Positions 1 through 30,312 of a DNA stretch of 64,000 nucleotides are shown one piece after another. The translations under genes and the position numbers were made by a program. How positions within the stretch are numbered: the first letter of the stretch is position 1; each line of letters begins with the position of its first letter. The notes below the pieces were generated by a model. It saw only the letters and a list, made by a program, of their open reading frames with translations. It did not search any database and was not told where the DNA came from. This DNA is from an uncultured bacterium (GTDB lineage Bacteria > Omnitrophota > Omnitrophia > Omnitrophales > JACQLI01), in NCBI GenBank assembly GCA_964372875.1, contig CAYJTB010000001.1, positions 27,860-91,859 of the forward strand. The letters run 5' to 3'.

Positions 1-1
1 T

Positions 2-1623: not shown

Positions 1624-1636
1624 TTAGAACCGGCTG

Positions 1637-3279: not shown

Positions 3280-3280
3280 A

Positions 3281-3394: not shown

Positions 3395-3413
3395 GGAAGG
3401 ATAAAGAAAAACT

Positions 3414-3803: not shown

Positions 3804-3841
3804 GGTTTCGTTAACGAAAAGGAGAATCATTTTAGAAAGTT

Positions 3842-4842: not shown

Positions 4843-4886
4843 AGATAAAGCACCTAACATTGTTAGGATTCTAAGGAGGAAATTCA

Positions 4887-5879: not shown

Positions 5880-5888
5880 GAAAATTTC

Positions 5889-6485: not shown

Positions 6486-6521
6486 CCGAGGGCCTTGTTG
6501 ATCCCTCTTCTCGCAGAACCC

Positions 6522-7688: not shown

Positions 7689-7746
7689 ATAGCCCCTTTC
7701 CCCGGTCCCTCATCCTTCACCTGTTATAATCTTCTAGAGATTTACC

Positions 7747-15315: not shown

Positions 15316-18300
15316 ATGACCCTACGCGCGAAAAATTTTTATCTACGCACTGTCGCAGCTTTCACCGCAATCATTTTTTGCTGGAATAGCCTTGCTTGGC
15401 CGCTTCCCGAGGTTGCGGTTCCCCAGGCCGGCAAAACTTTCGATCTCATTCCAAAAGAACTCGGAACCGTCGATGAATACGAACTGCCGGACGCTTCACA
15501 TTCCGCACCCTTTGTCATACATATTCAAGATCTCCACGCAGCACCCGAAGCTCAAGAAAAAATCCTGGACATTCTTAAATTTTTACATTCAAAAAAGAAA
15601 CTTCTCGTAGCGGTCGAAGGAGCCGCCGGAACGCTTCATCCTGAGTATTTAGATTTCTTTCCGCAATACCCGCGTGTCACAAACGCACTCGTTCAAGATT
15701 TGGTAAGTGAGAGCATGCTTACAGGGCCGGCGTTATTCGCATGGGAGAGGTATGAGAGTAAGCCGTCATTGCACCCGTCATTGCGAGGACGTAAGTCCGA
15801 AGCAATCTCAAATCCTAGATTGCTTCGTCGGGCCTTTGGCCCTCCTCACAATGACAATAGCGTCCAATTCATAGGCGTCGAGACGCCGCGTCTTTATCGC
15901 GAAAACCTTAAAGCCTATCGCGATTTTTTCCAGGATGAAGAAAAAAATCAGCAGGATTTGAAATCTTTCCAAACCTCATTGGAATCGGCCCAAACGAAGA
16001 TTTTCAATCCTGATTTGAGGAAATTTGTCCAAGAAGTCCAGAGACGTAAAGATGGAAAGTTTCAATCGGGAAAGGCCTCGCCCGATCTTGCGGCTTACAT
16101 TCGCTTTCTCGCGGATTCAAGCCGAGATCATTTGGGAGTTGATCTAAGAGATAAATTCGAACAGATCCGTTTTCCCAATCTAACCCGCATTCTTTTCTTG
16201 ATGGAATTCGAATCAAAAATCACTGCTCACCAGCGCCGGGTTCTGCATTCTGAAATTGAATCCAAAAAACTTTTTGATGAAATCACACTTCTCGAAACAA
16301 GACTGCGGCAAATACTGGTTAAAAAGCCGGAAGAAACAAAACTTCTTGAGATCCTTGATGATTTCAAGTTGCTTGAGAAGTTATTCCATTTGGAACTGAC
16401 TCGCGAGGAATATTACCAAGTCGTCAACAGGGTTTTGGAAATCAATCCGTCGAATTTACATCAGCGTTTGGCAACCATTGCTGAGATTGCTTCGACCTCG
16501 TCTGAAATGTTGTCTCGCAATGACGCCGATTACGAAACTGCTCTGCGTTTTTACCGCTTAGCCATTCGCAGAGACAAAGCCCTTCTTGAAAATGCCTTGC
16601 GAGAGGCAGCTAAAACGGAGAACTCGTCTCAAGAAAAACCACTCATCGTTCTTGTTACCGGCGGTTTTCACACTTCAGGGGTGAGCGAGCTTCTCAAAGA
16701 AAAGAAAATTCCTTACGCCGTCGTCACGCCTGCCTTAGCAAAAACCAAAGCCAATCAAGACCAATATCACAAACTGATGTCCGGCAAAATGTTCGCCAAA
16801 GAAGCCTCAAGCGCTTCGCCCAAGAATAACAATCTGGTGTGGGCGCAGATTCTTACAGCAAGAGATCGGTACCCGAGCCTCAATTCCGACGAGGATCAGC
16901 AAAAAATATTTTCCCACGCGACTGAAAAGTCCGGCGAGTATTTTCGAAAATTCTATCCCCAAATCTCCGAACCCAAACTGCAAGAACTTTTATCTCGCCC
17001 CGCCGGATTCTTTTCGCAAATCTCCCGTTCCGAATTGCAAAGTAGGAGCCAGATTACGAATTCGGCCATCGATGGCCGAATTGGCGGGAAAAGGGTACTG
17101 CCTTCACGTTTTCCGCGCTCGGAAGTGCGGGCGGTAGAACAGCGATTAGAAGTCAGTGGTCAGAAGACAGAAGGCTGGAGTTCAAAGATAGGAAAAATTA
17201 TCAGGAATGGCAGCGATTTTGGACTATCGAGGGTTTTCCAGCGTAGTCAGGCGAAGAATTATCGAATTCCAAGCCGCTTAGAAAAATCTCGAGGTGAAAG
17301 AATAGAAATCTCTTTAAAGGTTTTCATCGATAGCAGATCGTGGTCTCCTGTGACAATGATCGTTGCTTTAGCTGAAAGAGCGCATTCCAGCACGGCATCA
17401 TCGTCCGGGTCACGGCAGGCCTTTACCTTTGTTTTAGGTTTGACTATCAAAGCTTTCATATGGATCAATGAAATCATTTCTTCAAGCATTTCAGGCGTGA
17501 TCCATTTCTTGAGTTTAGGTTTTTCCAGTGAGCGAAGAAAGTCTTCCAGTAAGGCCGGAGATAAAGCCGCAATGAACTTGTCTTCTTCCAGGGATTCCAG
17601 AATCGAACGGCAAACGCCCGGAAAGGCGAGTCCGCTCACCAGCACATTCACATCAAGAACGACCCGACGCATACCGTTCCTGCCGGGCTTGCTTGACCAG
17701 ATTCAGAAGCTCTTTTCGGCTGAGAGGGTGTTTCTTTCGGCTTTTATCAACTTTGCGGGTCAGAGAACGGAAGCGTTCTCCCCAGGTCTTATGTTCAAGA
17801 CGACGGATCAGGGTAATGCGGTCACGGGATTTCAATTGATTGATCATGCGCTCAATTTGTTGAATGTCTACTTCCACGGCAATCTTAGGCATAGGATTTT
17901 ATCCTCCTCTTCGAATCAGTATAATTTATCGGCCTTGGCGGATCAAAATCAAAACATTTCTTCCGTTAAGCCTTCTAAGCAAAGTTCGACAGAACCGAGC
18001 CGAAGGGCCGCTTCCGGCCCCGAGAGCCGTCAGTCTCCGATCCTAAGCGTCGATAGACCCGGAGGGGCCCGTGGGGAGGTGCGGGCAAAAGAACAGAGGT
18101 CAGAAGTCAGAGAGCAGAGGATAGAGGTCATAAGTCAGAGATCAGAAGGAAAAATTACTTCGAGTGGCGGCGATTTTGGTAGCGTTCGATCAGGTACATC
18201 ACGCCCCAGGCAAGAAATATCAAAACCAAAACAAGAGACACGGTTATCACGTTTTATTTACCCCTTTTCCGAATCTCTTGGGCAAGCCATCCAAGAAATA

Positions 18301-21300
18301 AGAATCATGATGGCTACAATTATAGAGAGAACAGCCTTGGCCTTCAATGAAGTTTTCCAAATGTTTTCGCTCACCACGAGGGCTGCTAATACAAGGCTCA
18401 CCGCCCTCATGATCCCATCAGCAAACAAATTCCGTCTTTTAGATGGAAAAAGGGTTTTCATCTCAATGCTTCAAGCGCCGCAACCTAACACAGGATTAAT
18501 TTTAAGTCAAATATTATTTTTAGAATATGAAATATCCCGCCGCTCGGAGGTGCGGGAATACATCTCGGATTGGACGGTCTCGACCTTGGAAACGAAACAG
18601 CCGGTTTTGGCGGCGGCATTTTCAACGGACGGGAAGATTTTGGCCGCGGGCGCAAGAAACAACGTTCATCTGACCAACGGAGACCTTCGGAAATGGTCCG
18701 TGGAATTTAGGGCCCACCGCAACGAGATTGCAAAACTTATTTCTTTTCAAAGAGGAAACAGGAATTTTTTCGCCACAGCCAGCAGAATCGGCTCGATCAG
18801 CCTATGGAATTCAAACGGCGGGCTGATCCGGCGGCTGGAGCAGCTTAATCCGGAGGATTTCCAACCTGTGTTAGGGTTATCCGTTTCTAAAAATGGAGAT
18901 TGGCTGGCAGCCACGGACATGGATGTAATGAAGATCTACGATCTTACGGGAATGAGTTCCCCTAAAACAATTCCCATCACGGATCAAAGTCGCAATCATT
19001 TCGTTCAATTTTCTCCCGATGGGACGAGCATCGCCTCCACTTATTACGGCGAAATCCGAATCGAGGATATCAAAACCGGAAAACTCCGCGCGAACCTTCA
19101 TCACGAAGCTTCTCTTAAGAAGTCCATGGATACGTCAGCCTTGGCCTTTTCCAAAGGCGATGATGTCGCCGCGGCCTCCACCGACGGAAAAATCAGGATC
19201 TGGAGATGGAAAGGGGAAAGGCAGCCTCAGGTTTTAGATTTTTTGTCACCAGCCCGCGAAGCAAGCCACCTCATCTTTTCACCTAATGGAAAACGTCTCG
19301 CCGCGTCTACGGCAGATCAGATCGAAATATGGAAACTTAATGGAAAAGTGTGGCGTCATGAAGAAACAATCTATCCGCATCTGGACGCCGTGACAGAAAT
19401 TTTATTTTCACCGGATGCAAAACGGTTTATGGCCGCAGGCATTTGGCACGGAAGCGGGAGAGTCCGAATTTGGTCGAAGGAAACGCCGGCAAGGGCCGAA
19501 GTGCGGACCGACGGCATCCCGACAACCTGGTTCCGGATTTTTAACAGGCTGGATAACCTTAACCGGGAAGTGTGGAAACAAAAAGATTTAGACATCATTG
19601 ACCTGACCAACCAATTGGAGAAAAAACTCATCAGCTTATTCGGTTCGCAGCTCCTTTATGGAATCTGGACTTGGAATACTTCAGTTCGGGAAGTACGGTT
19701 TGGCCTTAGGTCGGGGCCTTTAAGTTTTGAATTGACTGCCAACCCGCATCAGGAAATCCCGGAAAGAGAAATTAAAAGGGGATACACGGTAACAATGAAT
19801 GCGATGCTTACTTCCGCTGCGGAAAGTCAGCATGCAAAAAAATGGGGAGACAGCGAACCGGAAGAAAGGGGAGAGACTTTGCTTGAAATTCCTATTGCAG
19901 AGATCGACCGCTCCCAACCTGTTATCTATTTCGGCAGTTTCTATTTTGATACCGACAAGGAAAAGAAAGAAACGATCATCAAACAGGAAATCCTTTTCCT
20001 TCCCGGAGAGGAGAGAAATTATCAAATCTATATTTGGCATAACAACGCCCTTGAAAAAACTACCTTAGAAAAAGAAGGCGGCAGGACCTACGCGGTATGG
20101 AGAACGCCGGAAGCCGAACCTTCCCTTTCGTTTCAATATGTGGCACTGCATGATGCCCAAGGCAAAGACCTGGGCGAAATAAGCCGGCTCATTCTGAAAG
20201 CCGGAAACTCGGAAACTTACAGGAACAACCTTCAATTTCTTTACGGTCCTATTTGGAGAGACGAAACGTCGAGTTTTTCTCATGGTAGCAGAACTTCCGT
20301 AAAACCATCGGTTTTTGAAGACCTTATCTCTGCTGCGCCGGGCAAAAGGATCGCTGCGCTGCTGGGTCTAGCGATTGAATATCAATATGTCCCGGAAGGC
20401 CAAGTATTCAGCCGGATGCTGCTTACCGAATTGGAAAAATTGGAGGGCCTGCCGTACGGACGAATCGCAGCGCTTCGAGAAATTGCGGAAATGAGTCCCG
20501 AGGAAGCCCATGAAAGATTTAAAGATCCCTACGACCAGCCCAGCGCGATCCCGGCCGTCATGACCCTCGTGGCCAGCCTCGCCCCGCGTCTCCTTGAAAG
20601 AATGAAAAATTGGGATCAGGAATTTTATGAAGAGCTAAAAGGGGTCCTGCAAAAACCGGATCTCAAAACTTTATTCGAGGAAGGGGAGGTCAAATTTTAT
20701 GAGGCGGATCATCTCTGGGCCGCTTCAGATAACCGATCTTTTTTCCCTGGTGTTGTCGCCTTTTCAAGGAGTAAAGACCGGCAAATCATCGTCCCAATCT
20801 ATTTCGGCAACGAACCGAAAGATGAAGACGGCAAAGTCTGGTTTAAAATCTTGGACGCCACATCGCTTGGAATCGAGAATTCAAATGCCGCCACTTACCA
20901 AGTCTACGACCACATGCTCGGGGAATTTTATAAAACACTTCATTCAGGGGAAAAACTTTATCGAGAGGGTTGGAGCATCGGCATTCCGGTCGTCCCGGGA
21001 AAGCTGGACCGGGCCGGGTTTATCCAAAAGGGACGGCATGTTCAATTTTTGGAAATGCGAAGGACCCAATCTCTAACGACGGCGACCCGGATCGGCTTGC
21101 CGGAAAATCTTGTCAAGACACAAGGGATTCTTACGGATCTTTTGAGAGAAATGAGTAAACTCGAAATTTATTTTTTTATCAGTAAGACCGGTGCAACCGA
21201 TCGGCGCATGGTGCCTGTGGATAACGTTTATGAATTTTTTTCATCCTATGCGGGGAAAAAAGGCGAGCATTGGAATGAAATCGTAAGTGAGCCCCTTCAA

Positions 21301-24300
21301 TTGACCGTGAGCTCTCCGGGTTTTAAGCGCCAGACGCTTCGGCATGCGCTTCGGATGATGCAGGAAGCGCTTCAACTTACTTATTCTTTCCCCGGCACTT
21401 TGAAAGGAAATGACCCCCACCTTTCTTTTTATCACGATAAATTAATCGAAGAGACCCAACTTTTAAAAACATCGGATCAAACCGGAAAGTGGGCCCATGT
21501 CGAATTCGAAATCGCAAGCAGCCATTTTGAAATGCCGGATCATTGGGATCAGCCCGCCGAAAATTCGCTGCGTCAAAGAATTCAGGCGTTGCGCGAGGCA
21601 TTAGAAATTCCCTTTGTCCTTATGTTAAAAGCACCTTCCGGCGCCAAGGATCCTTATCACATCGAGCCGGTGGGAAACCTTCACCAGCGGCTTCCTTATT
21701 TTGTTCTCAAAGATGATTTCTTGAAAAATCCTCACGATCCGCGTTTTCCCTATTTTTCAAAAGGCGCTCAACTCAGTTTCGGACTTGAAGCACCCATGGA
21801 TTCGGCAAGATTGGAACAAGTTAGAAATATTCTGGTTGCAAGTCTTGAAGGCCGGATGTCGGCAGCTACCCTTAAGCGTGCCATTGAAGTGACGATGCAT
21901 CAGTGGCAAAGAGAAGACTCCTTCTTTTCCGAATCCCGCTCCGAGGCACGCCGTGTGCCTCGAACGCTTGCGGTGCACCCGGTGCGGTTGGCACCGGGTA
22001 CTCCGCTATACCCGGACCGGTCGGGTCCGGGTGTTGCGGTGCAGAGTCATTGGAACTCTGCCCGTTCAGAAGTTCGAACGGAGAAGTCAGAACGTCTAAC
22101 TCGTTCCAATGCAGGCGAATTACTCAAACCGCGCAGATACCTCAAGAATAAAATCTACGGAATTGGGCGCATTACCGCTGTGGAAGGAAAATTCGGGGGA
22201 AAAGATCCTCAAGGCTCCGTCGAGGTCGCTTTTTTAAATAAACACGGATTCGAAGAAACGAAAGAATTTTCCACCTGGTCACTTTTTCAATTGCCGGAGC
22301 AAAATCCCGAAGAAGCTTTCTTTTCCGTTACCAGGCAAGAAATCGAAGATTTCAAGAATCAAAAAAGACAAGGTCAAGCAGCTTATAAAGAAGAAATAGA
22401 TAAAAAACGCATAGCCCAACGGGAGGGCAGGCAATGGATGGAAGCACAAAGCCCCACATTTTCTCTCTACGATTCGCCTTTCAGCGCAAGAGCCGGAAGG
22501 CCCCTGGCCGCAGATTATAGAAAATTGATGCAAGGAATCCAAGACCGGGCACAGGGCGAGTATCACTTGGGCAGCGCCTCCATCGTGGAACGAAAAATTT
22601 TGTTTGAAATGCTGGGCACTCGCCTGATCCCTAAGACGAACCAATCGGAAACCACCCTTCGGATCAACTTAGGCCGGAGAAAAAAGGAATTCGCAGAGAA
22701 ATTGAAAACGATTTTAGATGAAACGGGCGGGCTAAGCGCCCGGGCCGTGAGCGAGGCGGAAGAGAAAATCATGTCTCCCAAAGATAAGTCCCGTGCGCTT
22801 TCAAGCGAATGGCTGAAATTCCGGGATCCTGTTACCGGTAAATTTGCGACCGAAAAAGATATCAAACGCTGGATCCAGAATGCCATTCCGATCGTTGAAA
22901 GAATCTTAGAATATGAAGTAAAACTTCTCAAATTAGAAAAACAAATTCAAATTCATCCGCGGCCTCTTGCGCGATCCGAAGTAAGGGCCGCTGAAAGTTC
23001 TCCCACAAAGAAGGTCGCATTTTTTAACCTCAGGACCGCGGACGATTCATCCATTGTTTTGCCGCAAAGGATGTCCTATCTTCCCGTCGAGCAGCGGTTG
23101 CCTGACTATAGCGCCTGGCGGATTCGAGTGGGAAGGGAATCGGGAAATTTGCACGCATTTTTGAGAGATGTCCTTGGCCCACGCTGGCATTGGAATGTCA
23201 AAGGAGAAACTAAGGCTTATTTTCTTTATAAAAGTCTCCCGAAGAAATTCAAACAATTTATTGGTAAACGCAAACCGCCGACAGGTTTTGATATGGAAGC
23301 GCTTGGACTTTTGGTGGTTAATCGAAGCGACATTTTTTACATTCCGATGGAAGAAACTGTGAATGAATCCGTGGTAACGGTGTTAGACAAAAATGACCGG
23401 GACGCGATCAATGAATTTATAAGCCATCATGCAATGATCCAAACGGTGCCGCAGAATATCCGGATCTTTCCTCCCGTTCGATATGAGAGCGTCAAGTTTG
23501 GATTGGGAGAGGATCCCGTGTCGAGTCCCAAGCCCGGCTCCATCGAAGTTGTTTATCACCCCAGGCTCATGGTCAATGATCTTGGCAAGGCAGATAAAGA
23601 AATTATTTTCGAAACCAGTTTCGACTTAACACAATTAAGGCCCCGGAAAAAGATTACGGCTGAACTTGAGGGAAGATTCTATCAAGAGTTAAAGTCCAGG
23701 CTGCGCAATACTTGGCAGATCCGCATAGGCAACCGGACCGTGGAAATGCCTCGGGCAAAAGATTTGCCGGCTAAAGTTCAAGACGTGGAAGAAATTTTGT
23801 TGCCGGGGAATAACCGTAAAACGGCGTCTTTACATTTCAATGATGCGGTTTCGTTCTATCTCGACGGAATTTTGATGCGCTCCAATGTGCCTGTACCCAA
23901 GGATATTCACGCCTGGATTTTTTGGAAAACACGGATTCGTTTTAACGATCAGGAAATCTCGGTTGAAACGACCGAAGGCAACAATGTATTAACTTATCGA
24001 ACAGATGAAACCGGTGAACATCTGCGGGTCAATGGCGAACCGACAGACAATAGTGTTTTGCAAAACATGATTCGTCAGATGGGCTCCGCTTTTTCAATCT
24101 TGGCCTTTCAGATGGCGCGCGATCCCGAACAAACGGATTATCTTCGCGAATCCGGCAAAGAAACGATTGATGATGAATTCGACCAATGGCTCGGCCGTTC
24201 TGAGGTGCGGGAAGAAGGACAGCCTGCACAAAATGGGAATGGCCACGCTATCCAGAAAAAGCAAAGAGGCCGCGGGTTCAGGACTAAAGAAGAAGCCTTG

Positions 24301-27300
24301 CAAGCCCTTGCCGAAAGACAGGCAAAAGGTCTTTCCAGTGATCCAAAATCCCTTCAAAGGCATTTAGCCGAAGGCGGCAACCCTACTTTGCTCACCTTCA
24401 TTTATCGATGGAATCAAAAGCACCCGGAAGAACCCATTGAAATGAAATTGTTGCCTACCCGAACCCACAAGTACGAATCCAAAGGAGAAATTATTGAAGC
24501 GCTGGAAAAAAGGCGGCTGGAAAAAGGAGAATCAGCCAATTATCGAATGCAATTACGCCTTCATATAGAAGAAGGCGGCGATCGTACATTGTATCAAGCG
24601 GTTCTGCGTTGGAATCATGATCATCCAGAGGATTTGATCAATCTTCCTTTGGATCCCCATGTGGCGCATGGTCAATTGGGAAAATACCAGACCAAACAAG
24701 ACGGCTTGAATACTTTGAGTGAAAGGAAAAAACAAGGTCTGGGAAATTCAACCAGCGATCTCAGGCAAACTAAATCGGATGGGGGGGATTGGCCTCTTCT
24801 TGTTTTTATTCGCCATTGGAATAAGAAGCATCCGAAGGATCGCATTGCGCTGGAGAATGCTGACCAAAACTTCAACCGCCTGAGTCCTGTTGCGGTCTGG
24901 CATTCCCAGACGCAGGATTTCAAGACGACCGATCAAAAAAGAACCGAATGGTGGCGGGCCTTGCAGGAAGAGGCGGATCACGAAGCTGGAAAAAGGCTGG
25001 TCGAGTCTTTTATTCCTTCAGTCAATGAGATTGCCCAAAGGTTAAGCGGGGGGAGAGATTCGCATTATGAAGCGGATTTAATCCAAAACGGAAATATGAT
25101 TGTCCTTGAGACGATCTATCCCGAGCGTAAAGAAGACCAGTGGAATCCGAGCCGCGGGGTTTCCATGACCGAATTTGTCGAGACCCGTTTAAAGAAAGAG
25201 ATGAGGCACCGGACATTGCAAGAGATACGTTCCAGCGGGAGATTTTCCATCGACGAGCCCTACCGTTTTTCCAAAGGCAGAGAAAAGGAATGGCAGGTTC
25301 CCAGTTATGACGCCCAACCGCAGGAAGTCCGAATTAACAACTTGGCTGATGAGAGGGACAAGCAATCGGGCCTTCCCGTGATTTTGTTTGAGGAAAAACA
25401 TCAAATCGCCCGCGAGATCGGAAAATGGTTAATCAAAAAAGGTTTTCTTAAACAGGTCAAGCAGGAAGGGATTCAGAACCTTGCCGTTTCAATGATCGGA
25501 AGCCTGGGAGTGCTCGGATCGGCAGTCAGAGATAAAAGCGATCTTAATTTGATGGTTGTTACCGACGCAAATGAGTCGCAGGCTGAAGCCCTCGCAGAAA
25601 AACTTGCGCAGTGGATCGGGGGCCGATATCACGAGCCGCAGGATTCGGAGCCTATCCGCATCTCCGTAGGAAAAGAAGGTGATTATGAGCAAGCCATAGC
25701 AGACGGAAACGGCTTCATTAGCTTACTTCAAAAACACAAGGTGGGCACAGACCCCATCAAAGGAATTGCAAGCGTTGAAGTGATTGGAATTCCCGACGAA
25801 GACAACTCGTTTTCCGAAGACTCTCTTACCCGGCAAAAAACGCGGGCGGCTTTTCACCTGGCCTTCCAAGATCCCCGGTTAGCCGAGCAGGCAATCAATG
25901 GGATCCTTGTCCTTGAAAATGCCAAGGGGGCCGCAGAGCGTCTTGCCCAAAAATTGCCGAGCGATCAGGAAAACCTTTTCGGTTATTATGAAAAATTTCT
26001 TGCCAAACAAGCCGCCAATCTTCGCAAGTTGCAGGAATCTTCCATTGACTCAAAAGCAAGGGCCGAGGTGCACCCGAATCCGACCGATTCGGGTACTCCT
26101 CAGTCCTCGCCCGATCAGGCGAGGGCCGAGGTGCGTTCTTCTTTGCCGGAGCAACGGGCGGAAAAGAAGTTAGAAACAAGAAAGTTGGAAATTGGAGCAG
26201 GAATCAGCGGGCTTAGCGGCCGCGTTGAAACATCTAATGGGCGTGTTTTTTCCGGAAGTGATCGATTGCCAATAAAGTCAACGAGATCGCCGCAAAAATC
26301 AGAATGGCAAGGACAGCCGTCATTTAGTCTTCCTCCTTTGAGGAGCTTGCCGCAAAAATCAAGCCCAAATAAAAGCATATCACGAGTCCTCCTAGAACGA
26401 CAAGCCGCCATTTCAGGGAGAGTTTTAGGAAAAGCTCTCCTCCCAGAACTCCTGCTAATAGGACCAAAATCACATGCTGAAACAACTTTGCCAGCCAGTC
26501 CCTCCGGGCCGTTGTCAGGAATATACTTTTCACAAAATAAAATATATAGCAATATCAATTCAGAGTTAAGCGATTTTTCCCGCTCCGATGGTTCGACAAG
26601 CTCACCATCGGTCCTGAGCAAGGCCGAAGGCCGCGTCGAACGCGCCGAGGTGCACCCGAATCCGACCGATTCGGGTACTCCTCCGCACTCACGCCCAACC
26701 GGCGTGAGTACTGAGGTGTCCCTGGCGGCGCCGCCAGGGGCTCCTCCGTCCTCGCCTGAACGGGCGAGGGCCGAGGTGCGGGCAAGCGTTGAAGAAATAA
26801 TCAGGAAGCAGATGCTTTCTGGAGATCTGAAGGCCTTTGAAAAGAATTTCGAATCTTACGACCGTGAAAAGGCCTTTGAACTTTTAAATAGCATTTCGAA
26901 AATTGCCAAGGAAATTTCAGAAAGGATCCGCAAAGGAGAAGAAGAACTGATGGTAGCTGCAAACAATGGCCAAAAAATGCAAGAAATCATTGACGCGGCT
27001 AAAATCTTGGAAAATTTCCCAAATGATAAACAAATACATGGTGTCCACCTATCAGCTATTATAAATTTACAGGAAATCTTCAATCTTACACCAAAAGCAT
27101 TGCCAAGATATCGCAATCTCTTAGAAGCTATTGTTAAACACGCGTCAAAAAAAGAACAACCTCACCAGGCAGCAGCTGAAATTATCGAGAGCTTTGAAGG
27201 AGAACAGCACGCTGATTCCCAACAAGATCAATTTCAAAGGAACGAAGCACTGGAATTTTTAACCCTAGATCTGGATGAAAAAGTTTTTAAAGAAACAGTA

Positions 27301-28719
27301 ATAAAAAATCATTTTCTGACCGCGCTTCATCATTTCATTTGGGAACACAGCGACTTTGAAGATGCGAAGAATTTAGCCAGAGAACTCGGTAACTTGAGCC
27401 TAATCAGTTCTTTGTTGGGTGAGCCCCTCAGTAAAAGACAGGCCGCTTTTTATAAGCGCGCACTTTTGAGCTCTGACCGCACGCAGCAGAAGATCGCGCT
27501 TGGCTTCTTCGAGACTTTCCCTGATCTTGAAAAAATGGACTGGAAAGAGGAAGTCGTTGGTAAACTTAAAGAAATCGTAATGGATGAATCCGAAGATTCT
27601 GAATTTAGAAAATATGCCTTTGAAGCGTTGACAAACAATATTCTTCTTATAGAGCCAGCCTTTTTGGCGCCTTATTTTAAAGAGCCGCGCAGCCAACGGT
27701 TTCGAATCATTTCTTCGGATAAAAAAGGCGCTCGGATTTTATTTTCGGTTCTTCAGAAGAAATTTGGGTCGCCTTTAAAGGACCCGCCCCTTTTTAAAAA
27801 AAGTTCCGAGTCCATCATTTTATCAGGAGAATTTACGACAGGTCTGAGAAATGCTGCCATGTTGATCCGATTTGTAAGGCAGGCCTACGGCCGGGAGATA
27901 TCCTTTGATGAGTCCCGCGGCTTGCTTAAAGAGATGAAAAAGAAACAAGACAGATCCCGGCGTTCCGAAATACGGAGTGAAAGCTTGGATTCGACGTGGG
28001 AGTTGAGGGAGGATGCGAACAAAGGAAAGCTTGCGGAACTTGGAAAACAATTTGCGCCGATGATTGAGAGTCTTTGGAAACGCTCCGAGGTCAGGCACAG
28101 GCTTGCGACGGACGGATTTTTGAATCTTTCAAAGCTGATTGAAATTCCCAAAGCCGAAGCGGCTGAACCTGCGATTGTAGCTGCGCTTTTGATCCGTGCA
28201 GAACAATCCCAAACCGGAACGCCGGCTTTGGACAAACATTTGCAAGTGTGGCAGTCGCGCATGGGAATCAGTTCGGTTGCTAAAGAAAATGAAGTCGTAA
28301 TCCTCTTAGAAGGTGCGGCGTTTAAACTCGGACTCTTGGCTGCGATCGACGGAATTAGCCCGGCAGCTCCGAAGATCGGCGTTGTGGCGCCCAAGGCTTA
28401 CCATTCTTTAGTGGAAGAAGTCAGAAGCGGTCTTAGAACCGGGCAAGAACTGATCGAAGGGGAGAAGCTTCCCGAAATTTTAAATCAAATTGCTCAGATG
28501 AAACAGAAGCCAAGCCGCTTAACGATTTGGGCTTCGAAGGAAGACTCGTTCTTAACAGCAGCGTTCATCAAACGTTTTCTTAAAGATCCAAACCTGAATG
28601 TAGAAGTAAAGACCGTGACGCAGCGCGATCTTGACCGCGCCAACGCGTCTCACCCCGGCTTTGCGGAACGTATCAAGAACTTCCTCGCCGCCGTCAAATC
28701 CCTCAGCATTTCCGCTTAA
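15316..28719 (+). CDS. giant modular ORF, 4,467 codons, function unknown
   Basis: Single uninterrupted frame; AGGAAAG RBS; N-terminal TM helix; protein-like composition in most modules; junction peptide conserved with synonymous codon variation. Caveat: three segments look non-coding on this strand. Confidence 0.7.
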   Translation: MTLRAKNFYLRTVAAFTAIIFCWNSLAWPLPEVAVPQAGKTFDLIPKELGTVDEYELPDASHSAPFVIHIQDLHAAPEAQEKILDILKFLHSKKKLLVAVEGAAGTLHPEYLDFFPQYPRVTNALVQDLVSESMLTGPALFAWERYESKPSLHPSLRGRKSEAISNPRLLRRAFGPPHNDNSVQFIGVETPRLYRENLKAYRDFFQDEEKNQQDLKSFQTSLESAQTKIFNPDLRKFVQEVQRRKDGKFQSGKASPDLAAYIRFLADSSRDHLGVDLRDKFEQIRFPNLTRILFLMEFESKITAHQRRVLHSEIESKKLFDEITLLETRLRQILVKKPEETKLLEILDDFKLLEKLFHLELTREEYYQVVNRVLEINPSNLHQRLATIAEIASTSSEMLSRNDADYETALRFYRLAIRRDKALLENALREAAKTENSSQEKPLIVLVTGGFHTSGVSELLKEKKIPYAVVTPALAKTKANQDQYHKLMSGKMFAKEASSASPKNNNLVWAQILTARDRYPSLNSDEDQQKIFSHATEKSGEYFRKFYPQISEPKLQELLSRPAGFFSQISRSELQSRSQITNSAIDGRIGGKRVLPSRFPRSEVRAVEQRLEVSGQKTEGWSSKIGKIIRNGSDFGLSRVFQRSQAKNYRIPSRLEKSRGERIEISLKVFIDSRSWSPVTMIVALAERAHSSTASSSGSRQAFTFVLGLTIKAFIWINEIISSSISGVIHFLSLGFSSERRKSSSKAGDKAAMNLSSSRDSRIERQTPGKASPLTSTFTSRTTRRIPFLPGLLDQIQKLFSAERVFLSAFINFAGQRTEAFSPGLMFKTTDQGNAVTGFQLIDHALNLLNVYFHGNLRHRILSSSSNQYNLSALADQNQNISSVKPSKQSSTEPSRRAASGPESRQSPILSVDRPGGARGEVRAKEQRSEVREQRIEVISQRSEGKITSSGGDFGSVRSGTSRPRQEISKPKQETRLSRFIYPFSESLGQAIQEIRIMMATIIERTALAFNEVFQMFSLTTRAANTRLTALMIPSANKFRLLDGKRVFISMLQAPQPNTGLILSQILFLEYEISRRSEVREYISDWTVSTLETKQPVLAAAFSTDGKILAAGARNNVHLTNGDLRKWSVEFRAHRNEIAKLISFQRGNRNFFATASRIGSISLWNSNGGLIRRLEQLNPEDFQPVLGLSVSKNGDWLAATDMDVMKIYDLTGMSSPKTIPITDQSRNHFVQFSPDGTSIASTYYGEIRIEDIKTGKLRANLHHEASLKKSMDTSALAFSKGDDVAAASTDGKIRIWRWKGERQPQVLDFLSPAREASHLIFSPNGKRLAASTADQIEIWKLNGKVWRHEETIYPHLDAVTEILFSPDAKRFMAAGIWHGSGRVRIWSKETPARAEVRTDGIPTTWFRIFNRLDNLNREVWKQKDLDIIDLTNQLEKKLISLFGSQLLYGIWTWNTSVREVRFGLRSGPLSFELTANPHQEIPEREIKRGYTVTMNAMLTSAAESQHAKKWGDSEPEERGETLLEIPIAEIDRSQPVIYFGSFYFDTDKEKKETIIKQEILFLPGEERNYQIYIWHNNALEKTTLEKEGGRTYAVWRTPEAEPSLSFQYVALHDAQGKDLGEISRLILKAGNSETYRNNLQFLYGPIWRDETSSFSHGSRTSVKPSVFEDLISAAPGKRIAALLGLAIEYQYVPEGQVFSRMLLTELEKLEGLPYGRIAALREIAEMSPEEAHERFKDPYDQPSAIPAVMTLVASLAPRLLERMKNWDQEFYEELKGVLQKPDLKTLFEEGEVKFYEADHLWAASDNRSFFPGVVAFSRSKDRQIIVPIYFGNEPKDEDGKVWFKILDATSLGIENSNAATYQVYDHMLGEFYKTLHSGEKLYREGWSIGIPVVPGKLDRAGFIQKGRHVQFLEMRRTQSLTTATRIGLPENLVKTQGILTDLLREMSKLEIYFFISKTGATDRRMVPVDNVYEFFSSYAGKKGEHWNEIVSEPLQLTVSSPGFKRQTLRHALRMMQEALQLTYSFPGTLKGNDPHLSFYHDKLIEETQLLKTSDQTGKWAHVEFEIASSHFEMPDHWDQPAENSLRQRIQALREALEIPFVLMLKAPSGAKDPYHIEPVGNLHQRLPYFVLKDDFLKNPHDPRFPYFSKGAQLSFGLEAPMDSARLEQVRNILVASLEGRMSAATLKRAIEVTMHQWQREDSFFSESRSEARRVPRTLAVHPVRLAPGTPLYPDRSGPGVAVQSHWNSARSEVRTEKSERLTRSNAGELLKPRRYLKNKIYGIGRITAVEGKFGGKDPQGSVEVAFLNKHGFEETKEFSTWSLFQLPEQNPEEAFFSVTRQEIEDFKNQKRQGQAAYKEEIDKKRIAQREGRQWMEAQSPTFSLYDSPFSARAGRPLAADYRKLMQGIQDRAQGEYHLGSASIVERKILFEMLGTRLIPKTNQSETTLRINLGRRKKEFAEKLKTILDETGGLSARAVSEAEEKIMSPKDKSRALSSEWLKFRDPVTGKFATEKDIKRWIQNAIPIVERILEYEVKLLKLEKQIQIHPRPLARSEVRAAESSPTKKVAFFNLRTADDSSIVLPQRMSYLPVEQRLPDYSAWRIRVGRESGNLHAFLRDVLGPRWHWNVKGETKAYFLYKSLPKKFKQFIGKRKPPTGFDMEALGLLVVNRSDIFYIPMEETVNESVVTVLDKNDRDAINEFISHHAMIQTVPQNIRIFPPVRYESVKFGLGEDPVSSPKPGSIEVVYHPRLMVNDLGKADKEIIFETSFDLTQLRPRKKITAELEGRFYQELKSRLRNTWQIRIGNRTVEMPRAKDLPAKVQDVEEILLPGNNRKTASLHFNDAVSFYLDGILMRSNVPVPKDIHAWIFWKTRIRFNDQEISVETTEGNNVLTYRTDETGEHLRVNGEPTDNSVLQNMIRQMGSAFSILAFQMARDPEQTDYLRESGKETIDDEFDQWLGRSEVREEGQPAQNGNGHAIQKKQRGRGFRTKEEALQALAERQAKGLSSDPKSLQRHLAEGGNPTLLTFIYRWNQKHPEEPIEMKLLPTRTHKYESKGEIIEALEKRRLEKGESANYRMQLRLHIEEGGDRTLYQAVLRWNHDHPEDLINLPLDPHVAHGQLGKYQTKQDGLNTLSERKKQGLGNSTSDLRQTKSDGGDWPLLVFIRHWNKKHPKDRIALENADQNFNRLSPVAVWHSQTQDFKTTDQKRTEWWRALQEEADHEAGKRLVESFIPSVNEIAQRLSGGRDSHYEADLIQNGNMIVLETIYPERKEDQWNPSRGVSMTEFVETRLKKEMRHRTLQEIRSSGRFSIDEPYRFSKGREKEWQVPSYDAQPQEVRINNLADERDKQSGLPVILFEEKHQIAREIGKWLIKKGFLKQVKQEGIQNLAVSMIGSLGVLGSAVRDKSDLNLMVVTDANESQAEALAEKLAQWIGGRYHEPQDSEPIRISVGKEGDYEQAIADGNGFISLLQKHKVGTDPIKGIASVEVIGIPDEDNSFSEDSLTRQKTRAAFHLAFQDPRLAEQAINGILVLENAKGAAERLAQKLPSDQENLFGYYEKFLAKQAANLRKLQESSIDSKARAEVHPNPTDSGTPQSSPDQARAEVRSSLPEQRAEKKLETRKLEIGAGISGLSGRVETSNGRVFSGSDRLPIKSTRSPQKSEWQGQPSFSLPPLRSLPQKSSPNKSISRVLLERQAAISGRVLGKALLPELLLIGPKSHAETTLPASPSGPLSGIYFSQNKIYSNINSELSDFSRSDGSTSSPSVLSKAEGRVERAEVHPNPTDSGTPPHSRPTGVSTEVSLAAPPGAPPSSPERARAEVRASVEEIIRKQMLSGDLKAFEKNFESYDREKAFELLNSISKIAKEISERIRKGEEELMVAANNGQKMQEIIDAAKILENFPNDKQIHGVHLSAIINLQEIFNLTPKALPRYRNLLEAIVKHASKKEQPHQAAAEIIESFEGEQHADSQQDQFQRNEALEFLTLDLDEKVFKETVIKNHFLTALHHFIWEHSDFEDAKNLARELGNLSLISSLLGEPLSKRQAAFYKRALLSSDRTQQKIALGFFETFPDLEKMDWKEEVVGKLKEIVMDESEDSEFRKYAFEALTNNILLIEPAFLAPYFKEPRSQRFRIISSDKKGARILFSVLQKKFGSPLKDPPLFKKSSESIILSGEFTTGLRNAAMLIRFVRQAYGREISFDESRGLLKEMKKKQDRSRRSEIRSESLDSTWELREDANKGKLAELGKQFAPMIESLWKRSEVRHRLATDGFLNLSKLIEIPKAEAAEPAIVAALLIRAEQSQTGTPALDKHLQVWQSRMGISSVAKENEVVILLEGAAFKLGLLAAIDGISPAAPKIGVVAPKAYHSLVEEVRSGLRTGQELIEGEKLPEILNQIAQMKQKPSRLTIWASKEDSFLTAAFIKRFLKDPNLNVEVKTVTQRDLDRANASHPGFAERIKNFLAAVKSLSISA
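15765..15855. mobile_element. MITE-like element inserted in-frame in the giant ORF
   Basis: GTCATTGCACCC GTCATTGCGAGG...AAGCAATC..GATTGCTTCG...CCTCACAATGAC; translated SLRGRKSEAISNPRLLRRAFGPPHND. Confidence 0.6.
16475..16524. repeat. possible degenerate/short copy of the same MITE family
   Basis: CCATTGCTGAGATTGCTTCG...TCTCGCAATGAC, translated ...MLSRND; left terminus is weak. Confidence 0.3.
17059..17082. repeat. 24-bp perfect palindrome
   Basis: AATTCGGCCATC|GATGGCCGAATT, 34 nt upstream of the first RSEVR junction. Confidence 0.9.
17259..17672 (-). CDS. PIN-domain ribonuclease toxin (PIN_3/VapC-like)
   Basis: VVLDVNVLVSGL..., CRDPDDDAVLECALSAKATIIVTGDHDLL: acidic PIN residues in the canonical order; 20-nt overlap with the upstream small gene. 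Confidence 0.9.
   Translation of the reverse strand: MRRVVLDVNVLVSGLAFPGVCRSILESLEEDKFIAALSPALLEDFLRSLEKPKLKKWITPEMLEEMISLIHMKALIVKPKTKVKACRDPDDDAVLECALSAKATIIVTGDHDLLSMKTFKEISILSPRDFSKRLGIR
17653..17892 (-). CDS. putative antitoxin of the PIN toxin
   Basis: 79-aa basic protein directly upstream of and overlapping the PIN gene; strong RBS; family not recognised. Confidence 0.6.
   Translation of the reverse strand: MPKIAVEVDIQQIERMINQLKSRDRITLIRRLEHKTWGERFRSLTRKVDKSRKKHPLSRKELLNLVKQARQERYASGRS
18070..18556 (-). mobile_element. antisense cassette 2: junction, 3'-flank repeat, small membrane protein
   Basis: Same build as cassette 1; bounded by junctions at 18070 and 18541; minus-strand TTGACT -35-like box upstream of ATG 18461. 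Confidence 0.4.
18258..18461 (-). CDS. small two-TM membrane protein (paralog of 26324..26533)
   Basis: 67 aa with two hydrophobic helices. Shares MK(T/S)(L/I)F...RR..(F/L)A...LVL.A.V...SLK pattern with the other cassette protein. Confidence 0.5.
   Translation of the reverse strand: MKTLFPSKRRNLFADGIMRAVSLVLAALVVSENIWKTSLKAKAVLSIIVAIMILISWMACPRDSEKG
18556..19491 (+). other. WD40-type beta-propeller module of the giant ORF
   Basis: Repeated units such as FSTDGKILAAG, ATASRIGSISLWN, FSPDGTSIAS, ASTDGKIRIWRW, FSPNGKRLAAS..IEIWK, FSPDAKRFMAAG..RVRIWS. Confidence 0.8.
21937..22080. repeat. in-ORF array of GC-rich hairpins at a module junction (copy a)
   Basis: CGAGGCAC/GTGCCTCG; CCCGGTGC/GCACCGGG; ACCCGGACC/GGTCCGGGT; CAGAGT/ACTCTG; CCGTTC/GAACGG; flanked by RSEAR and RSEVR codons. 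Confidence 0.65.
24274..24857 (+). repeat. three tandem ~65-aa protein repeats inside the giant ORF
   Basis: GFRTKEEALQALAERQAKGL...GGNPTLLTFIYRWNQKHPEEPI / KYESKGEIIEALEKRRLEKG...GGDRTLYQAVLRWNHDHPEDLI / KYQTKQDGLNTLSERKKQGL...GGDWPLLVFIRHWNKKHPKDRI. Confidence 0.6.
25060..25230 (+). other. sigma-70 region-2-like stretch in the giant ORF
   Basis: EADLIQNGNMIVLETIYPERKEDQWNPSRGVSMTEFVETRLKKEM resembles DLIQEGNIGLMKAV..FDP.RG..FSTYA.WWIR. Confidence 0.35.
25483..25575 (+). other. nucleotidyltransferase (Pol-beta/MNT-like) motif in the giant ORF
   Basis: SMIGSLGVLGSAVRDKSDLNLMVVTD matches the G-S-x(n)-G...D-x-D minimal NTase pattern. Confidence 0.45.
26059..26136. repeat. in-ORF hairpin element (copy b)
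   Basis: AGGGCCGAGGTGCAC CCGAATC cgacc GATTCGG GTACTCCT...CCTCGCC cgatca GGCGAGG GCCGAGGTGCGT; 39 bp (26062-26100) are repeated perfectly at 26644-26682. Confidence 0.7.
26324..26533 (-). CDS. small two-TM membrane protein (paralog of 18258..18461)
   Basis: 69 aa, GTG start, two hydrophobic helices, acidic C-terminus (SSSKEED); A/T-rich TATATT box upstream on the minus strand. Confidence 0.5.
   Translation of the reverse strand: MKSIFLTTARRDWLAKLFQHVILVLLAGVLGGELFLKLSLKWRLVVLGGLVICFYLGLIFAASSSKEED
26641..26781. repeat. in-ORF hairpin element (copy c, expanded to four hairpins)
   Basis: CCCGAATC/GATTCGGG; ACTCACGCC/GGCGTGAGT; CCCTGGCGG/CCGCCAGGG; CCTCGCC/GGCGAGG. Confidence 0.7.
26782..27960 (+). 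other. alpha-helical (HEAT/ARM-like) module of the giant ORF
   Basis: Helix-rich composition with a recurrent ~40-aa helical periodicity; judged by eye only. Confidence 0.3.
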
Positions 28720-28807: not shown

Positions 28808-29017
28808 ATGACACGAGTGACAGTTTCCCCAAAATATCAAATCGTGATCCCTAAAGAAATTAGGGAAAAGTTGGATATTCGGTGCGGACAGAAGATGGCC
28901 GTCGTAACAAGAGGGGAATGGATTATGCTGGTTCCCGATCTGCCTTTGAAACATTATCGGGGGTTTTTGAAAGGTGTGAGTTCAGAGGGGGTTCGTGACC
29001 GAAGGGACCGGTTTTGA
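28808..29017 (+). CDS. vapB: AbrB/SpoVT-type antitoxin
   Basis: MTRVTVSPKYQIVIPKEIREKLDIRCGQKMAVV: looped-hinge-helix AbrB fold motif; 4-nt overlap with the PIN gene. Confidence 0.85.
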   Translation: MTRVTVSPKYQIVIPKEIREKLDIRCGQKMAVVTRGEWIMLVPDLPLKHYRGFLKGVSSEGVRDRRDRF

Positions 29018-29391
29018 CGGTCATCGATTCAAGCGGTTGGATTGAGTTTTTTAGCGAAGGTCCACTTGCCTCCCATTATGAAAAGCATTTGGGGTCTTTG
29101 TCTGAGATTGTCGTTCCTACCATTGTGCTTTATGAAGTCTACAAGAAATATAAGAGAGAAAGCGGAGAGCAAGGCGCTTTGACCGCGGTGTTTCATATGC
29201 AAAAGTGCCGGATCGTACCTTTAACAGAAGAATTGAGTTTGGAGGCGGCGGATTTAAGCCTTCAATACGGACTTGCCATGGCCGATGCGATTGTTTATGC
29301 GTCGGCACTTCAGGAAAAAGCAAAGTTAATCACCAGCGATAAAGCCTTAAAAAATCTGCCTCAAGTGGTTTACTACAGTAAATCGTCCTAA
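29014..29391 (+). CDS. vapC: PIN-domain toxin
   Basis: MTVIDSSGWIEFF..., LSLEAADLS...MADAIVYASA...LITSD: PIN acidic residues. Confidence 0.85.
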   Translation: MTVIDSSGWIEFFSEGPLASHYEKHLGSLSEIVVPTIVLYEVYKKYKRESGEQGALTAVFHMQKCRIVPLTEELSLEAADLSLQYGLAMADAIVYASALQEKAKLITSDKALKNLPQVVYYSKSS

Positions 29392-29397
29392 GATTCC

Positions 29398-30312
29398 TTG
29401 AGTTCCACGCAAATCGCCCTTCTTAAAAAATACGGTCTTGAAGTCCGTGGATTTCGCGGCCAGCATCTTTTGGTCGATCCCAACATTCAACGAAAGATCG
29501 TGGAGTTAGTCGCTCCCAAACCAGGTGAGTGGATCGTTGAGATCGGGCCGGGCCTGGGTGCGCTCACGACTGAGATTTTGGCGGACGGCGCGTCGGTCCT
29601 TGCGATTGAAAAAGACAAACGCTTCTGCGAGATCCTGGAAGGGGAGTTCGGCATCGATTACAAAGGAAAACTCCTGATCGAAAATGCGGATGTTCTCAAG
29701 ACGGATTTAAAAAAATTACTCAAATCGTCGTTACGAGCCCCAAAGAGGCGAAGCAACCTAAGCACGAAGACTGCTTCGGCGCCGCCTCGCAATGACCGGA
29801 TCAAAGTCATCTCGAACCTTCCTTACTATATAACTTCACCTGTGCTTTTCTGGCTGATCTCCAATCGTGCATCTGTGGAAAAAGCGGTTTTGATGATGCA
29901 GGCTGAAGTCGCGGACCGTTTGCTCGCCCAGCCGGGAGATAAAGATTATAGCCGGCTTACCTTGGGAGTCCGGTATTACGCCGAAGTCCACCGTGCTTTT
30001 GAAGTTTCCCGCAATTGTTTTACTCCGAGGCCCGATGTCGATTCAACGGTCGTGACGATCGATTTTCACCCGCCGTCCGCATTCCCAAAAGGAATCGACG
30101 AGGCATTTCTTTTCCATCTCATTCAAGTAGCCTTCGGTGCCCGGCGAAAAACCCTACTCAATCGTCTTACGCAAGATTCAAAAGTAGGTCGCCCTCGTTC
30201 CCAGCTCTTAGAAATTTTTCACAAGCTCGGCATCCCCGAAATGGCCCGCGCTGAAGAGCTCCTCCTCAAAGACTTCATCTCATTGACCGAATTTCTTCAA
30301 CCTAAACATTAA
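29398..30312 (+). CDS. rsmA: 16S rRNA (adenine1518/1519-N6)-dimethyltransferase, carrying an in-frame repeat insertion
   Basis: GQHLLVDPNI, VEIGPGLGALT SAM motif, SNLPYYITSP; TTG start. Confidence 0.9.
   Translation: MSSTQIALLKKYGLEVRGFRGQHLLVDPNIQRKIVELVAPKPGEWIVEIGPGLGALTTEILADGASVLAIEKDKRFCEILEGEFGIDYKGKLLIENADVLKTDLKKLLKSSLRAPKRRSNLSTKTASAPPRNDRIKVISNLPYYITSPVLFWLISNRASVEKAVLMMQAEVADRLLAQPGDKDYSRLTLGVRYYAEVHRAFEVSRNCFTPRPDVDSTVVTIDFHPPSAFPKGIDEAFLFHLIQVAFGARRKTLLNRLTQDSKVGRPRSQLLEIFHKLGIPEMARAEELLLKDFISLTEFLQPKH
29727..29796. mobile_element. MITE-like element in-frame in rsmA
   Basis: GTCGTTACGAG...GAAGCAACC..CTGCTTCGG...CCTCGCAATGAC, translated SSLRAPKRRSNLSTKTASAPPRND, placed just before the NLPY motif. 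Confidence 0.6.

Follow-up and report, generated by a model that had tools for sequence, protein, structure and literature searches.

Whether giant bacterial open reading frames (ORFs) are expressed as single chains or are cut into smaller proteins is a current puzzle, and the cleavage points have been stated to be unknown (West-Roberts et al. 2023, bioRxiv 10.1101/2023.11.21.568195). The same question is raised by a giant ORF in a 64,000 nucleotide (nt) stretch of the genome of an uncultured Omnitrophota bacterium (contig CAYJTB010000001.1, positions 27,860 to 91,859), to which we refer as the window. The ORF occupies positions 15316–28719 of the plus strand, is larger than any other ORF in the window and encodes 4467 amino acids (aa) from a single ATG, with the sequence AGGAAAG 8 nt to its 5′ side. 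It reads through a series of protein modules (here numbered M1 to M8) and through three inserted segments (inserts 1 to 3), at least one of which carries a verified gene on the opposite strand.

A preliminary description of this DNA, made from its letters alone, had proposed a single stop-free frame that runs through a chain of mutually unrelated blocks, and both proposals are borne out. There are 0 in-frame stops over 15316–28719, compared with 182 and 236 in the other two plus-strand frames and 155, 174 and 213 in the minus-strand frames. Using a coding-potential model trained on the remaining genes of the window, we found a plus-strand potential above zero along every module and a potential of zero or below in the intervals 17116–18300 and 26116–26560, which fits the earlier remark that some segments look non-coding on the plus strand. 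Within the first of these intervals, a minus-strand frame scores best over a PIN toxin gene.

The giant ORF is a genuine, selected, single translation unit and a member of an undescribed subfamily of giant modular proteins from uncultivated bacteria. Its members start with a helix of signal or anchor type, followed by a hydrolase-fold domain of the TIKI superfamily (ChaN/TraB/Ere/RRSP-like) and then by unrelated modules of stand-alone type, each of which is bounded by the peptide R-[S/A]-E-[V/A]-R.

A pentapeptide at the module borders

We noted that the borders of the modules coincide with 15 nt junctions encoding R[SAG]E[VI]R, as the claim of one short junction at each block boundary would have it. 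Across all frames of the 64 kb this motif has 13 occurrences, of which 12 are in the frame of the giant ORF and one is in another frame; shuffled sequence gives a mean of 0.72. The canonical junctions start at positions 17116, 18070, 18097, 18541, 19492, 22063, 22972, 24196, 26122, 26767, 27961 and 28081 of the plus strand, and there are degenerate copies at 21937 (RSEAR) and at 26059 and 26641 (both RAEVH). All of the junctions are in-frame with the giant ORF.

The conservation of the junction was determined over 41 junctions in three loci, those of the window and of two relatives. The information content at codon positions 1, 2 and 3 was 1.45, 1.76 and 0.72 bits, respectively, and fell to background just beyond the 15 nt of the junction. 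Arginine is encoded by both CGN and AGR codons, serine by both TCN and AGC, and the ratio of GAG to GAA is 21:20. Within the window itself the five codons of the junction differ synonymously. Sites such as TCAGAAGTTCGA and TCGGAGGTGCGG are alike as peptides but not in their DNA core, a difference that would not be tolerated in a DNA site. The three-periodic conservation and the mixed codon families for arginine and serine thus show selection for a peptide rather than for a DNA site, and the junction is under purifying selection at the amino acid level.

Start codons were not enriched behind the junctions: within four codons of 66 junctions there were 14, against 13.6 expected, and the next methionine lies 10–225 aa further on. 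Since the individual modules are not provided with start codons, the chain must be made as one polypeptide. The stretch that precedes the first junction is predicted to be disordered, and Rfam returned no known RNA family in the locus.

Tandem in-frame duplications of the junction are seen at 18090–18152 of the window, with a period of 21 nt, and at 7520–7549 of a related contig, L005, where the peptide reads RAEVRRAEVR. Tandem copies of this kind could serve as landing pads and so come to flank inserts.

Several junctions of the window read A-R-A/S-E-V-H/R, for example at 26056–26073 (SKARAEVH) and 19489–19506 (ARAEVR), and fit the core of the Win motif bound by WDR5. In eukaryotes this motif is A-R-[ACST]-[EKR], with Ala(−1) and Arg(0) essential. 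Ala(−1) is found at ∼7 of the 15 window junctions, at none of the 12 in L005 and at one of the 16 in a second related contig, L006, and the WDR5-type Pfam match in the giant protein is weak (2e-7, far under its cutoff). We have mostly rejected the analogy, as Ala(−1) is not conserved in the relatives, and the likeness is probably a coincidence.

The N-terminal domain and module turnover in related loci

Module M1 (15316–17115, plus strand) comprises a hydrophobic helix (aa 2–26) and a domain with a TIKI/ChaN/TraB/Ere fold, in which H74, E101, R419 and GG[FY]H452 are invariant. The structure models, which are of moderate confidence, predict a parallel β-sheet core with flanking helices that is structurally like known members of the TIKI superfamily, and a disordered tail (aa 562–600) ahead of the first junction. 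Neither TraB/PrgY/GumN, ChaN nor erythromycin esterase was matched by M1 in Pfam or NCBIfam sequence profiles at E ≤ 0.1, and there was no match among the sequences of solved structures. The 'ChaN/Tiki-like' identity first suggested for this block is therefore supported at the level of the predicted fold, with no Pfam match.

Across 14 family members with 22–50% identity, the residues H74, E101-G102, G187, Y194, Y413, R419 and GG[FY]H452 are invariant or almost so. H74, E101 and H452 are invariant in 13–14 of the 14; an acidic residue is conserved at position 189 and D72 is variable. The spacing between H74 and E101 is 27, compared with 28 for the His-Glu pair of Bcr135 and RRSP. In these two proteins a set of two histidines and two glutamates is catalytic, and RRSP, a TIKI-family module of the MARTX toxins, is a sequence-specific endopeptidase. 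The M1 domain looks enzymatically competent. The domain is also linked to the motif: in 7/7 multi-module proteins bearing a TIKI domain, including those almost without other junctions, the first [RH]SExR is found 97–193 aa past GG[FY]H, and P0005, a stand-alone homologue of M1, ends at that point after GG[FY]H.

Scans of genomes and metagenomes with the whole giant protein gave an unrelated WD40 match or nothing. An exhaustive profile-free search was carried out with aa 2255–3454 of the giant protein, which yielded 24 proteins, almost all of 2–7 thousand aa (kaa), in which modules M4 and M6 are placed differently. The motif R[SA]E[VAILM]R was counted in these proteins. It was found 12 times in the query (0.07 expected), with RSEVR as the preferred variant; 12 times in P0006 (0.07 expected), with a preference for RAEVR; 13 times in P0009 (0.05 expected), with a preference for RSEAR; and twice in P0008, a fragment of 785 aa (0.01 expected). 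The other giants have 0–1 copies. Where M4 is shared, its alignment in P0006 starts exactly at a junction and stops 6 aa short of the next, and in P0008 and P0009 it stops 2 aa short. In the DNA of L005 and L006, every motif is in the frame of the ORF. The junction DNA of L005 is near-identical from site to site, with CGCGCCGAGGTGCGG at 6/12 junctions.

The giant protein of L006 (∼7,800 aa) likewise has a TIKI-fold domain at its start. Its gene is split by a frameshift at 9997–10001, within a SecA DEAD domain, and is called as two genes, of 2801 and 4999 aa, in different frames. The break may have been introduced in sequencing, or it may reflect true pseudogenisation or programmed frameshifting.

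Scanning metagenomes with the N-terminal domain gave four more long loci with a TIKI domain at the start of the ORF, namely L007, L008, L012 and L013, with 8, 5, 3 and 12 in-frame junctions, respectively; three of these four ORFs run past the 10 kb flank. The junction peptide is thus present in 3 to 16 copies per giant gene at seven loci. The modules of the relatives are domains of stand-alone type, such as HEAT repeats, wHTH repeats, a CPBP protease and two methyltransferases.

Two of these loci, L007 and L008, are syntenic with the window (Mfd, 80% identity; the next two genes, 61–76%; GT2, 66–69%; PEGA protein, 43–44%), and their giant genes lie at the same position as that of the window. 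The N-terminal domain is common to all three (47–48% identity with that of the window). With L008 the window protein shares nothing else. With L007 it also shares M3, at 32% identity over 892 aa; the shared region has a different rank in the chain and ends 8–11 aa from junctions. The L007 and L008 proteins are 84% identical for ∼1,040 aa; the match breaks off at a junction, past which they are unrelated (best E 2.6), and L008 has an extra sense module of 103 aa between duplicated copies of RAEVR. Among the relatives, homology stops 0–11 aa from junctions. This comparison, which the preliminary description had called for, therefore shows that modules are gained, lost and reordered at junctions, so that the set of modules changes while the chromosomal locus stays conserved.

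We also observed separators of other kinds. P0026 (L015 3001–14844, 3947 aa) has M6 and is without a TIKI domain, and its separator is [AS][RH]F[AG]E, found 12 times against 0.04 expected. This motif occurs solely in the frame of the ORF, with a three-periodic conservation of 1.80/1.65/0.85 bits. The possibility that ARF[AG]E is the reverse complement of RSEAR DNA was rejected, as only 1/12 sites reads xSEAR on the other strand; the motif is at the peptide level. P0007 has the hydrophobic separator AM(L/A)P(L/I)(V/L)P three times, P0014 has MPR(F/L)IPFAAMV twice and P0018 has a 26 aa block, TITTVPPGTFPETETRGGVTRDK, three times. On L001, the contig of the TIKI homologue P0004, a second giant gene (1–8965, >4552 aa, with a weak ARMT1-like match) lies just upstream, and no RSEVR-type motif was found in the ∼9 kb part of this gene that was covered.

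Following M1 and the junction RSEVR at 17116–17130, the chain of the window passes through inserts 1 and 2, which meet at a pair of junctions (RGEVR and RSEVR, 18070–18111) set within the 21 nt (7 aa) in-frame tandem repeat EQRSEVR/EQRIEVI/SQRSEGK. The junction RSEVR at 18541–18555 then leads to M2 (18556–19491), a WD40 β-propeller (aa 1087–1376, Pfam E 8e-24 to 1e-10), as first described. Beyond RAEVR (19492–19506) lies M3 (19507–21936, ∼810 aa), for which there was no match in a word-indexed protein database; it was found in the orthologue L007 by local BLAST. The degenerate junction RSEAR, four successive GC-rich hairpins translated in frame and the junction RSEVR together occupy 21937–22077. 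Homologues of M4 (22078–22971, ∼300 aa) are found solely within other giant proteins, where they end 2–6 aa from a junction. M5 (22987–24195, ∼400 aa), between RSEVR junctions at 22972–22986 and 24196–24210, is an orphan that is not covered by any match in the search with aa 2255–3454.

M6 (24211–26058) is the commonest module across the giant proteins recovered. It contains three repeats of ∼67 aa (∼24270–24870), a sigma-factor domain-2 fold (∼24930–25240) and a nucleotidyltransferase fold of Pol-β type (∼25320–26055); homologues and fold support the earlier assignment of these three parts, which had put the repeats at about 65 aa. Insert 3 and the junction RAEVR (26767–26781) separate it from M7 (26782–27960), a helical orphan. 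A 35 aa mini-segment between RSEIR and RSEVR (27961–28095) is followed by the C-terminal M8 (28096–28719), an orphan at the sensitivity used; neither M7 nor M8 had a match in the word-indexed protein database. All eight modules are on the plus strand.

The neighbours of the giant gene in the window are those of an ordinary bacterial chromosome and include SecY, Mfd, GT2, a PEGA protein, KsgA, GatA/B and TsaD.

Antisense passengers and in-frame insertions

The preliminary description had placed real minus-strand genes in three segments of the giant ORF. This is verified for one of them, insert 1 (17116–18069), whose plus frame encodes 'junk' between junctions and whose first ∼110 nt recur at 18068–18179. 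It carries a gene for a PIN-family toxin on the minus strand (17259–17672; Pfam PIN_3, 8e-18; TIGR00305, 84.9 bits with a cutoff of 29.15) and, overlapping the start of the toxin gene, a putative VapB-like antitoxin of 79 aa (17653–17892, minus strand), for which the match to VapB15 (NF047401, E 1.4e-6) is weak and under the curated cutoff. A promoter-like sequence, TTGATC-17-TATACT, is present 26 nt 5′ of the antitoxin ORF (17946–17918, minus strand), as a consensus match only.

In the other two segments, both of low plus-strand coding potential, the minus-strand ORFs are plausible as genes. Insert 2 (18070–18540) has a putative ORF of 67 aa (18258–18461) and insert 3 (26059–26766) one of 69 aa (26324–26533), each encoding two predicted transmembrane (TM) segments. 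The two are weakly alike (pairwise E 5e-4), so that homology is only suggestive.

Direct repeats, of which the junction forms a part, lie on either side of the inserts: 17114–17222 with 18068–18179, and 26056–26135 with 26641–26780. Each repeat flanking insert 3 consists of RAEVH, hairpins and RAEVR. Hairpin clusters translated in frame between junction copies have strong predicted folds at 21937–22062 (z −7.0) and 26636–26785 (z −6.1). The folds of the flanks of inserts 1 and 2 have z of about −1, with no significant structure. We rejected two readings of the flank repeats, as part of a diversity-generating retroelement and as attC sites, because of this lack of structure around inserts 1 and 2 and because the mismatches between the repeats are not specific to adenine.

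Across the segment 17116–18555 the frame of the giant ORF has 0 stops and the other two plus frames have 28 and 23; across 26059–26781 the numbers are 0, 10 and 11. To estimate the chance of such an open frame, the minus-strand genes were recoded synonymously and the gaps were shuffled. The probabilities for the separate pieces were 0.108, 0.109, 0.45 and 0.0034, and 0.044, 0.0014, 0.13, 0.015, 0.074 and 0.32, giving a product of ∼5e-14, a rough value as the pieces were multiplied as if independent. For the minus-strand ORF of insert 3, the probability of an open plus frame was 0.003. The joint value indicates that the plus frame is kept open by selection across real antisense genes.

A similar arrangement is found in L006, where a HicA toxin gene lies on the minus strand (3e-21; HicA_toxin, 75.7 bits with a cutoff of 27) between junctions at nt 20219 and 20771, adjoined by a HicB-like antitoxin ORF that scores just below its cutoff (3e-5, 24.8 bits). 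The junctions flanking this HicAB pair form a 14 nt direct repeat, 552 nt (184 codons) apart, and the plus frame of the segment has 0 stops compared with 6 and 10 in the other plus frames. Both the PIN pair of the window and the HicAB pair of L006 can be classed as type II toxin–antitoxin (TA) modules, each with a toxin above its curated threshold and an adjacent small antitoxin gene. Junk-like segments between junctions of L013 (18494–19054) and L005 (854–1262) have minus-strand coiled-coil ORFs, whose similarity to each other (E 0.002) is only suggestive. Selfish DNA is thus carried between duplicated junctions without closing the frame, and includes antisense TA cassettes, hairpin clusters and one extra sense module. 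Intact TA operons antisense within an open ORF are an unusual case of overlapping genetic information, and one in which gene callers are trapped, reporting either the giant ORF or the passengers and never both.

A further TA pair lies on the sense strand directly 3′ of the stop codon of the giant ORF (28808–29391). Its first gene (28808–29017, MTRVTVSPKYQIVIPKEIREKL...) has the look of an AbrB/SpoVT-type antitoxin when judged by eye, and its second encodes a PIN toxin (Pfam PIN, 8e-21). With this pair to the 3′ side and the passengers within, TA modules are dense around and inside the giant gene.

Module M1 contains an in-frame palindromic element, GTCATTGCGAGGA...TCCTCACAATGAC (15777–15855, z −5.2), which has no counterpart in homologues and is predicted to be disordered. 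Its termini, GTCATTGCGAGGA/TCCTCRCAATGAC, occur as inverted pairs in M1, in TsaD and in the ORF at 35673–36692, and singly in KsgA and at 45189. The sites in the window are 15777–15855, 29784–29796, 34946–35038, 36144–36299 and 45189–45201, amounting to 9 matches against 1.5 expected. In coding genes the palindromic element is apparently an in-frame insertion in the style of the Rickettsia palindromic elements. The TIKI-fold domain of L006 (1594–3500) also has an in-frame insertion, '...VIPAKAGIH...', which by eye looks like a translated palindromic repeat of a family other than that of the window.

Proposed processing, rival explanations and known systems

The reading that we favour is that the giant ORF encodes a polyprotein that is processed at the junctions, possibly by its own TIKI domain, and we put its probability at about one half. 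The junctions would be endoproteolytic sites at which the product is cut to module-sized proteins, the N-terminal TIKI-family domain would be the leading candidate for the protease, and the first cut might be made in cis, 100–190 aa behind that domain. Recombination between any two junctions would swap, add or delete modules with the frame left unbroken, since every junction is in the same phase and has a brief stretch of coding sequence in common with the others. An insert landing between two junction copies would be translated as junk and trimmed off at the junctions, so that inserts would be tolerated only if stop-free. As addiction modules, antisense TA cassettes would be retained and might help to keep the array stable. 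What makes this reading the most likely is the combination of a short invariant border peptide, predicted disorder, lineage-specific variants of the peptide and the link to a conserved hydrolase-fold domain.

Several points weigh against processing. Proteolysis is wholly an inference, with no cleavage observed. The N-terminal helix resembles a Sec signal or anchor, so that the TIKI domain would be extracellular, whereas many modules, among them those with sigma-factor, nucleotidyltransferase, methyltransferase and WD40 domains, look cytoplasmic. The giants P0010, P0012 and P0013 have a TIKI domain but one junction-like motif each, so that the motif is dispensable for building a giant chain. 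No free-standing protein that starts just after a junction was found for any module, and hundreds of junk residues are costly to translate. A process at the DNA level would also be consistent with the junction copies on either side of inserts and with the near-identity of the junction DNA in L005.

More tentatively, the locus can be pictured as a self-processing polyprotein that acts as a 'protein-level integron'. A TIKI endopeptidase would cut a lineage-specific R-[S/A]-E-[V/A]-R peptide, in-phase recombination would exchange modules, selfish TA cassettes would have adapted to an antisense, stop-free existence between duplicated junctions, with their junk translation trimmed by the same protease, and other lineages would use other peptides, such as the [AS][RH]F[AG]E of P0026. 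We consider this fuller picture doubtful as a whole; if it is true, punctuation motifs are the missing cleavage map for giant bacterial proteins generally.

The junctions might instead be uncleaved linkers or recognition peptides, acting as hinges or docking sites in one giant scaffold with the inserts as disordered loops. This is a possibility, if not one that we would lean towards. The motif is short, charged and in predicted disorder, there is a WD40 propeller in the chain and R-[A/S]-E resembles the WDR5 Win core, and giant multi-enzyme proteins have been discussed in the literature as possibly intact scaffolds. However, a generic linker does not need an invariant pentapeptide, and the junctions of any one protein vary in concert (RSEVR, RAEVR or RSEAR, or the [AS][RH]F[AG]E of P0026), a pattern that resembles co-evolution with a dedicated reader. 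The Win-type Ala(−1) is present at about half of the window junctions and almost never in L005 or L006, and no WD40 domain was found among the modules of relatives in the parts of L007, L008 and L013 that were scanned or in the Pfam lists of both L006 genes. Loops of 150–320 aa of antisense-derived junk between folded modules would also be odd. A DNA-level explanation, in which the junction is a recombination site with an att-like core used for integron-like cassette exchange and the peptide is a by-product of the in-frame array, is improbable. It would account for the direct junction repeats that flank inserts as in Campbell-type integration (14 nt in L006, 80–140 nt in the window), for the extra sense module of L008 between duplicated junctions, for the swapping of modules exactly at junctions and for the near-identical junction DNA of L005, and the TA cassettes in the array recall chromosomal integrons. 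As the primary explanation we nevertheless reject it on the three-periodic conservation, which ends at the 15 nt edges with both arginine and both serine codon families in use. In addition, attC-like structure is absent at most junctions, the insert 1 and 2 flanks and the Rfam search gave nothing in its favour, and no integrase was seen among the neighbours scanned, which were a part of those in the window and at the syntenic loci. Microhomology-mediated recombination at junctions may still contribute.

Separation during translation and without a protease, whether by 2A-like bond skipping or by termination and reinitiation at the Shine–Dalgarno-like (SD-like) sequence GGAGGTG, is very improbable. 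Several junctions do contain GGAGGTG or GAGGTG, and the modules resemble independent proteins. Many junctions are without an SD-like core (TCAGAAGTTCGA, TCCGAAATACGG), the junctions are, to our knowledge, unlike the 2A motif, and the start-codon counts given above led us to reject internal restarts. Least credible of all is an artefact, in the form either of chimeric joins made at repeats during assembly or of a decayed operon open by chance. Repeats are indeed present at the junctions, and exact look-ups of the giant protein, GatB and the PIN toxin found nothing in the public collections searched. However, the probability of 4,467 codons remaining open by chance is negligible, the coding potential of the plus strand is positive in all modules and all junctions are in one frame, with the 15 nt of the junction synonymously variable. 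The same architecture is also found on six contigs of other assemblies (L005, L006, L007, L008, L012 and L013), of which L007 and L008 are syntenic with the window. This recurrence answers the worry about mis-assembly that accompanied the preliminary description.

For the polyprotein reading, the locus offers a concrete testable candidate, in which a selected border pentapeptide is tied to a conserved hydrolase-fold domain. The junctions also give a rule for splitting giant proteins in structure prediction, and the syntenic orthologues, with module turnover at the marks, show a mechanism in bacteria that resembles exon shuffling.

Parts of this organization have counterparts elsewhere. As with Rickettsia palindromic elements, palindromes or hairpins are inserted in frame and translated (at 15777–15855, 21937–22062, the insert 3 flanks, KsgA and TsaD); the sequence family and the host are different, and here there are whole antisense gene cassettes too. 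Chromosomal integrons share exchangeable units set off by a repeated element, interspersed TA cassettes, which are thought to stabilise the array, and hypervariable content at a fixed locus. Unlike integrons, the giant ORF has its units fused in one frame with a peptide-level delimiter, and neither an integrase nor attC was found: there is no intI by the giant gene, whose flanks are a PEGA protein, GT2, Mfd, KsgA and a PIN pair (window ORFs scanned in part).

Polyproteins of the viral and gingipain type likewise are one product with repeated short recognition sites at the borders of domains that lack their own starts. They differ in being compact and not cassette-variable, and we know of none that carries antisense cellular genes in frame. 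The MARTX toxins come close to the polyprotein reading, being giant chains of exchangeable, unrelated effector modules that are released by a protease within the protein, with sets that vary by strain. The architecture of the giant ORF is compatible with release by autoprocessing of this kind. In these toxins processing takes place at a leucine site between effector domains, whereas here there is a defined pentapeptide. The putative protease of the giant ORF is N-terminal and of another fold, and there are antisense passengers. Neither RTX or glycine-rich repeats nor a C80 cysteine protease domain was detected in the whole giant protein with Pfam and NCBIfam.

The closest known class is that of the giant multi-enzyme ORFs of Omnitrophota type (10.1101/2023.11.21.568195; Nielsen & Lui 2026, 10.64898/2026.06.07.730766), in which a single very long ORF is likewise tiled with unrelated enzyme and binding domains and membrane anchoring is found. 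With its 4467 aa, TIKI-fold, WD40, sigma-factor and nucleotidyltransferase parts and orphan modules, the ORF described here belongs to this class. SecA domains are reported in those papers and are also present in L006. Cleavage is speculated upon there, and the focus is on proteins of 10 kaa rather than the 4.5 kaa of the window protein. In a term search of the two papers we found neither a junction peptide that recurs, nor a TIKI-type domain at the N-terminus, nor antisense genes in an ORF. The initial view that no described system fits was therefore too broad as regards gene size and modularity and stands as regards junction punctuation and antisense passengers: the giant multi-enzyme ORF is a class that was known already, and what sets this member apart is the punctuation of its chain and the passengers within it.

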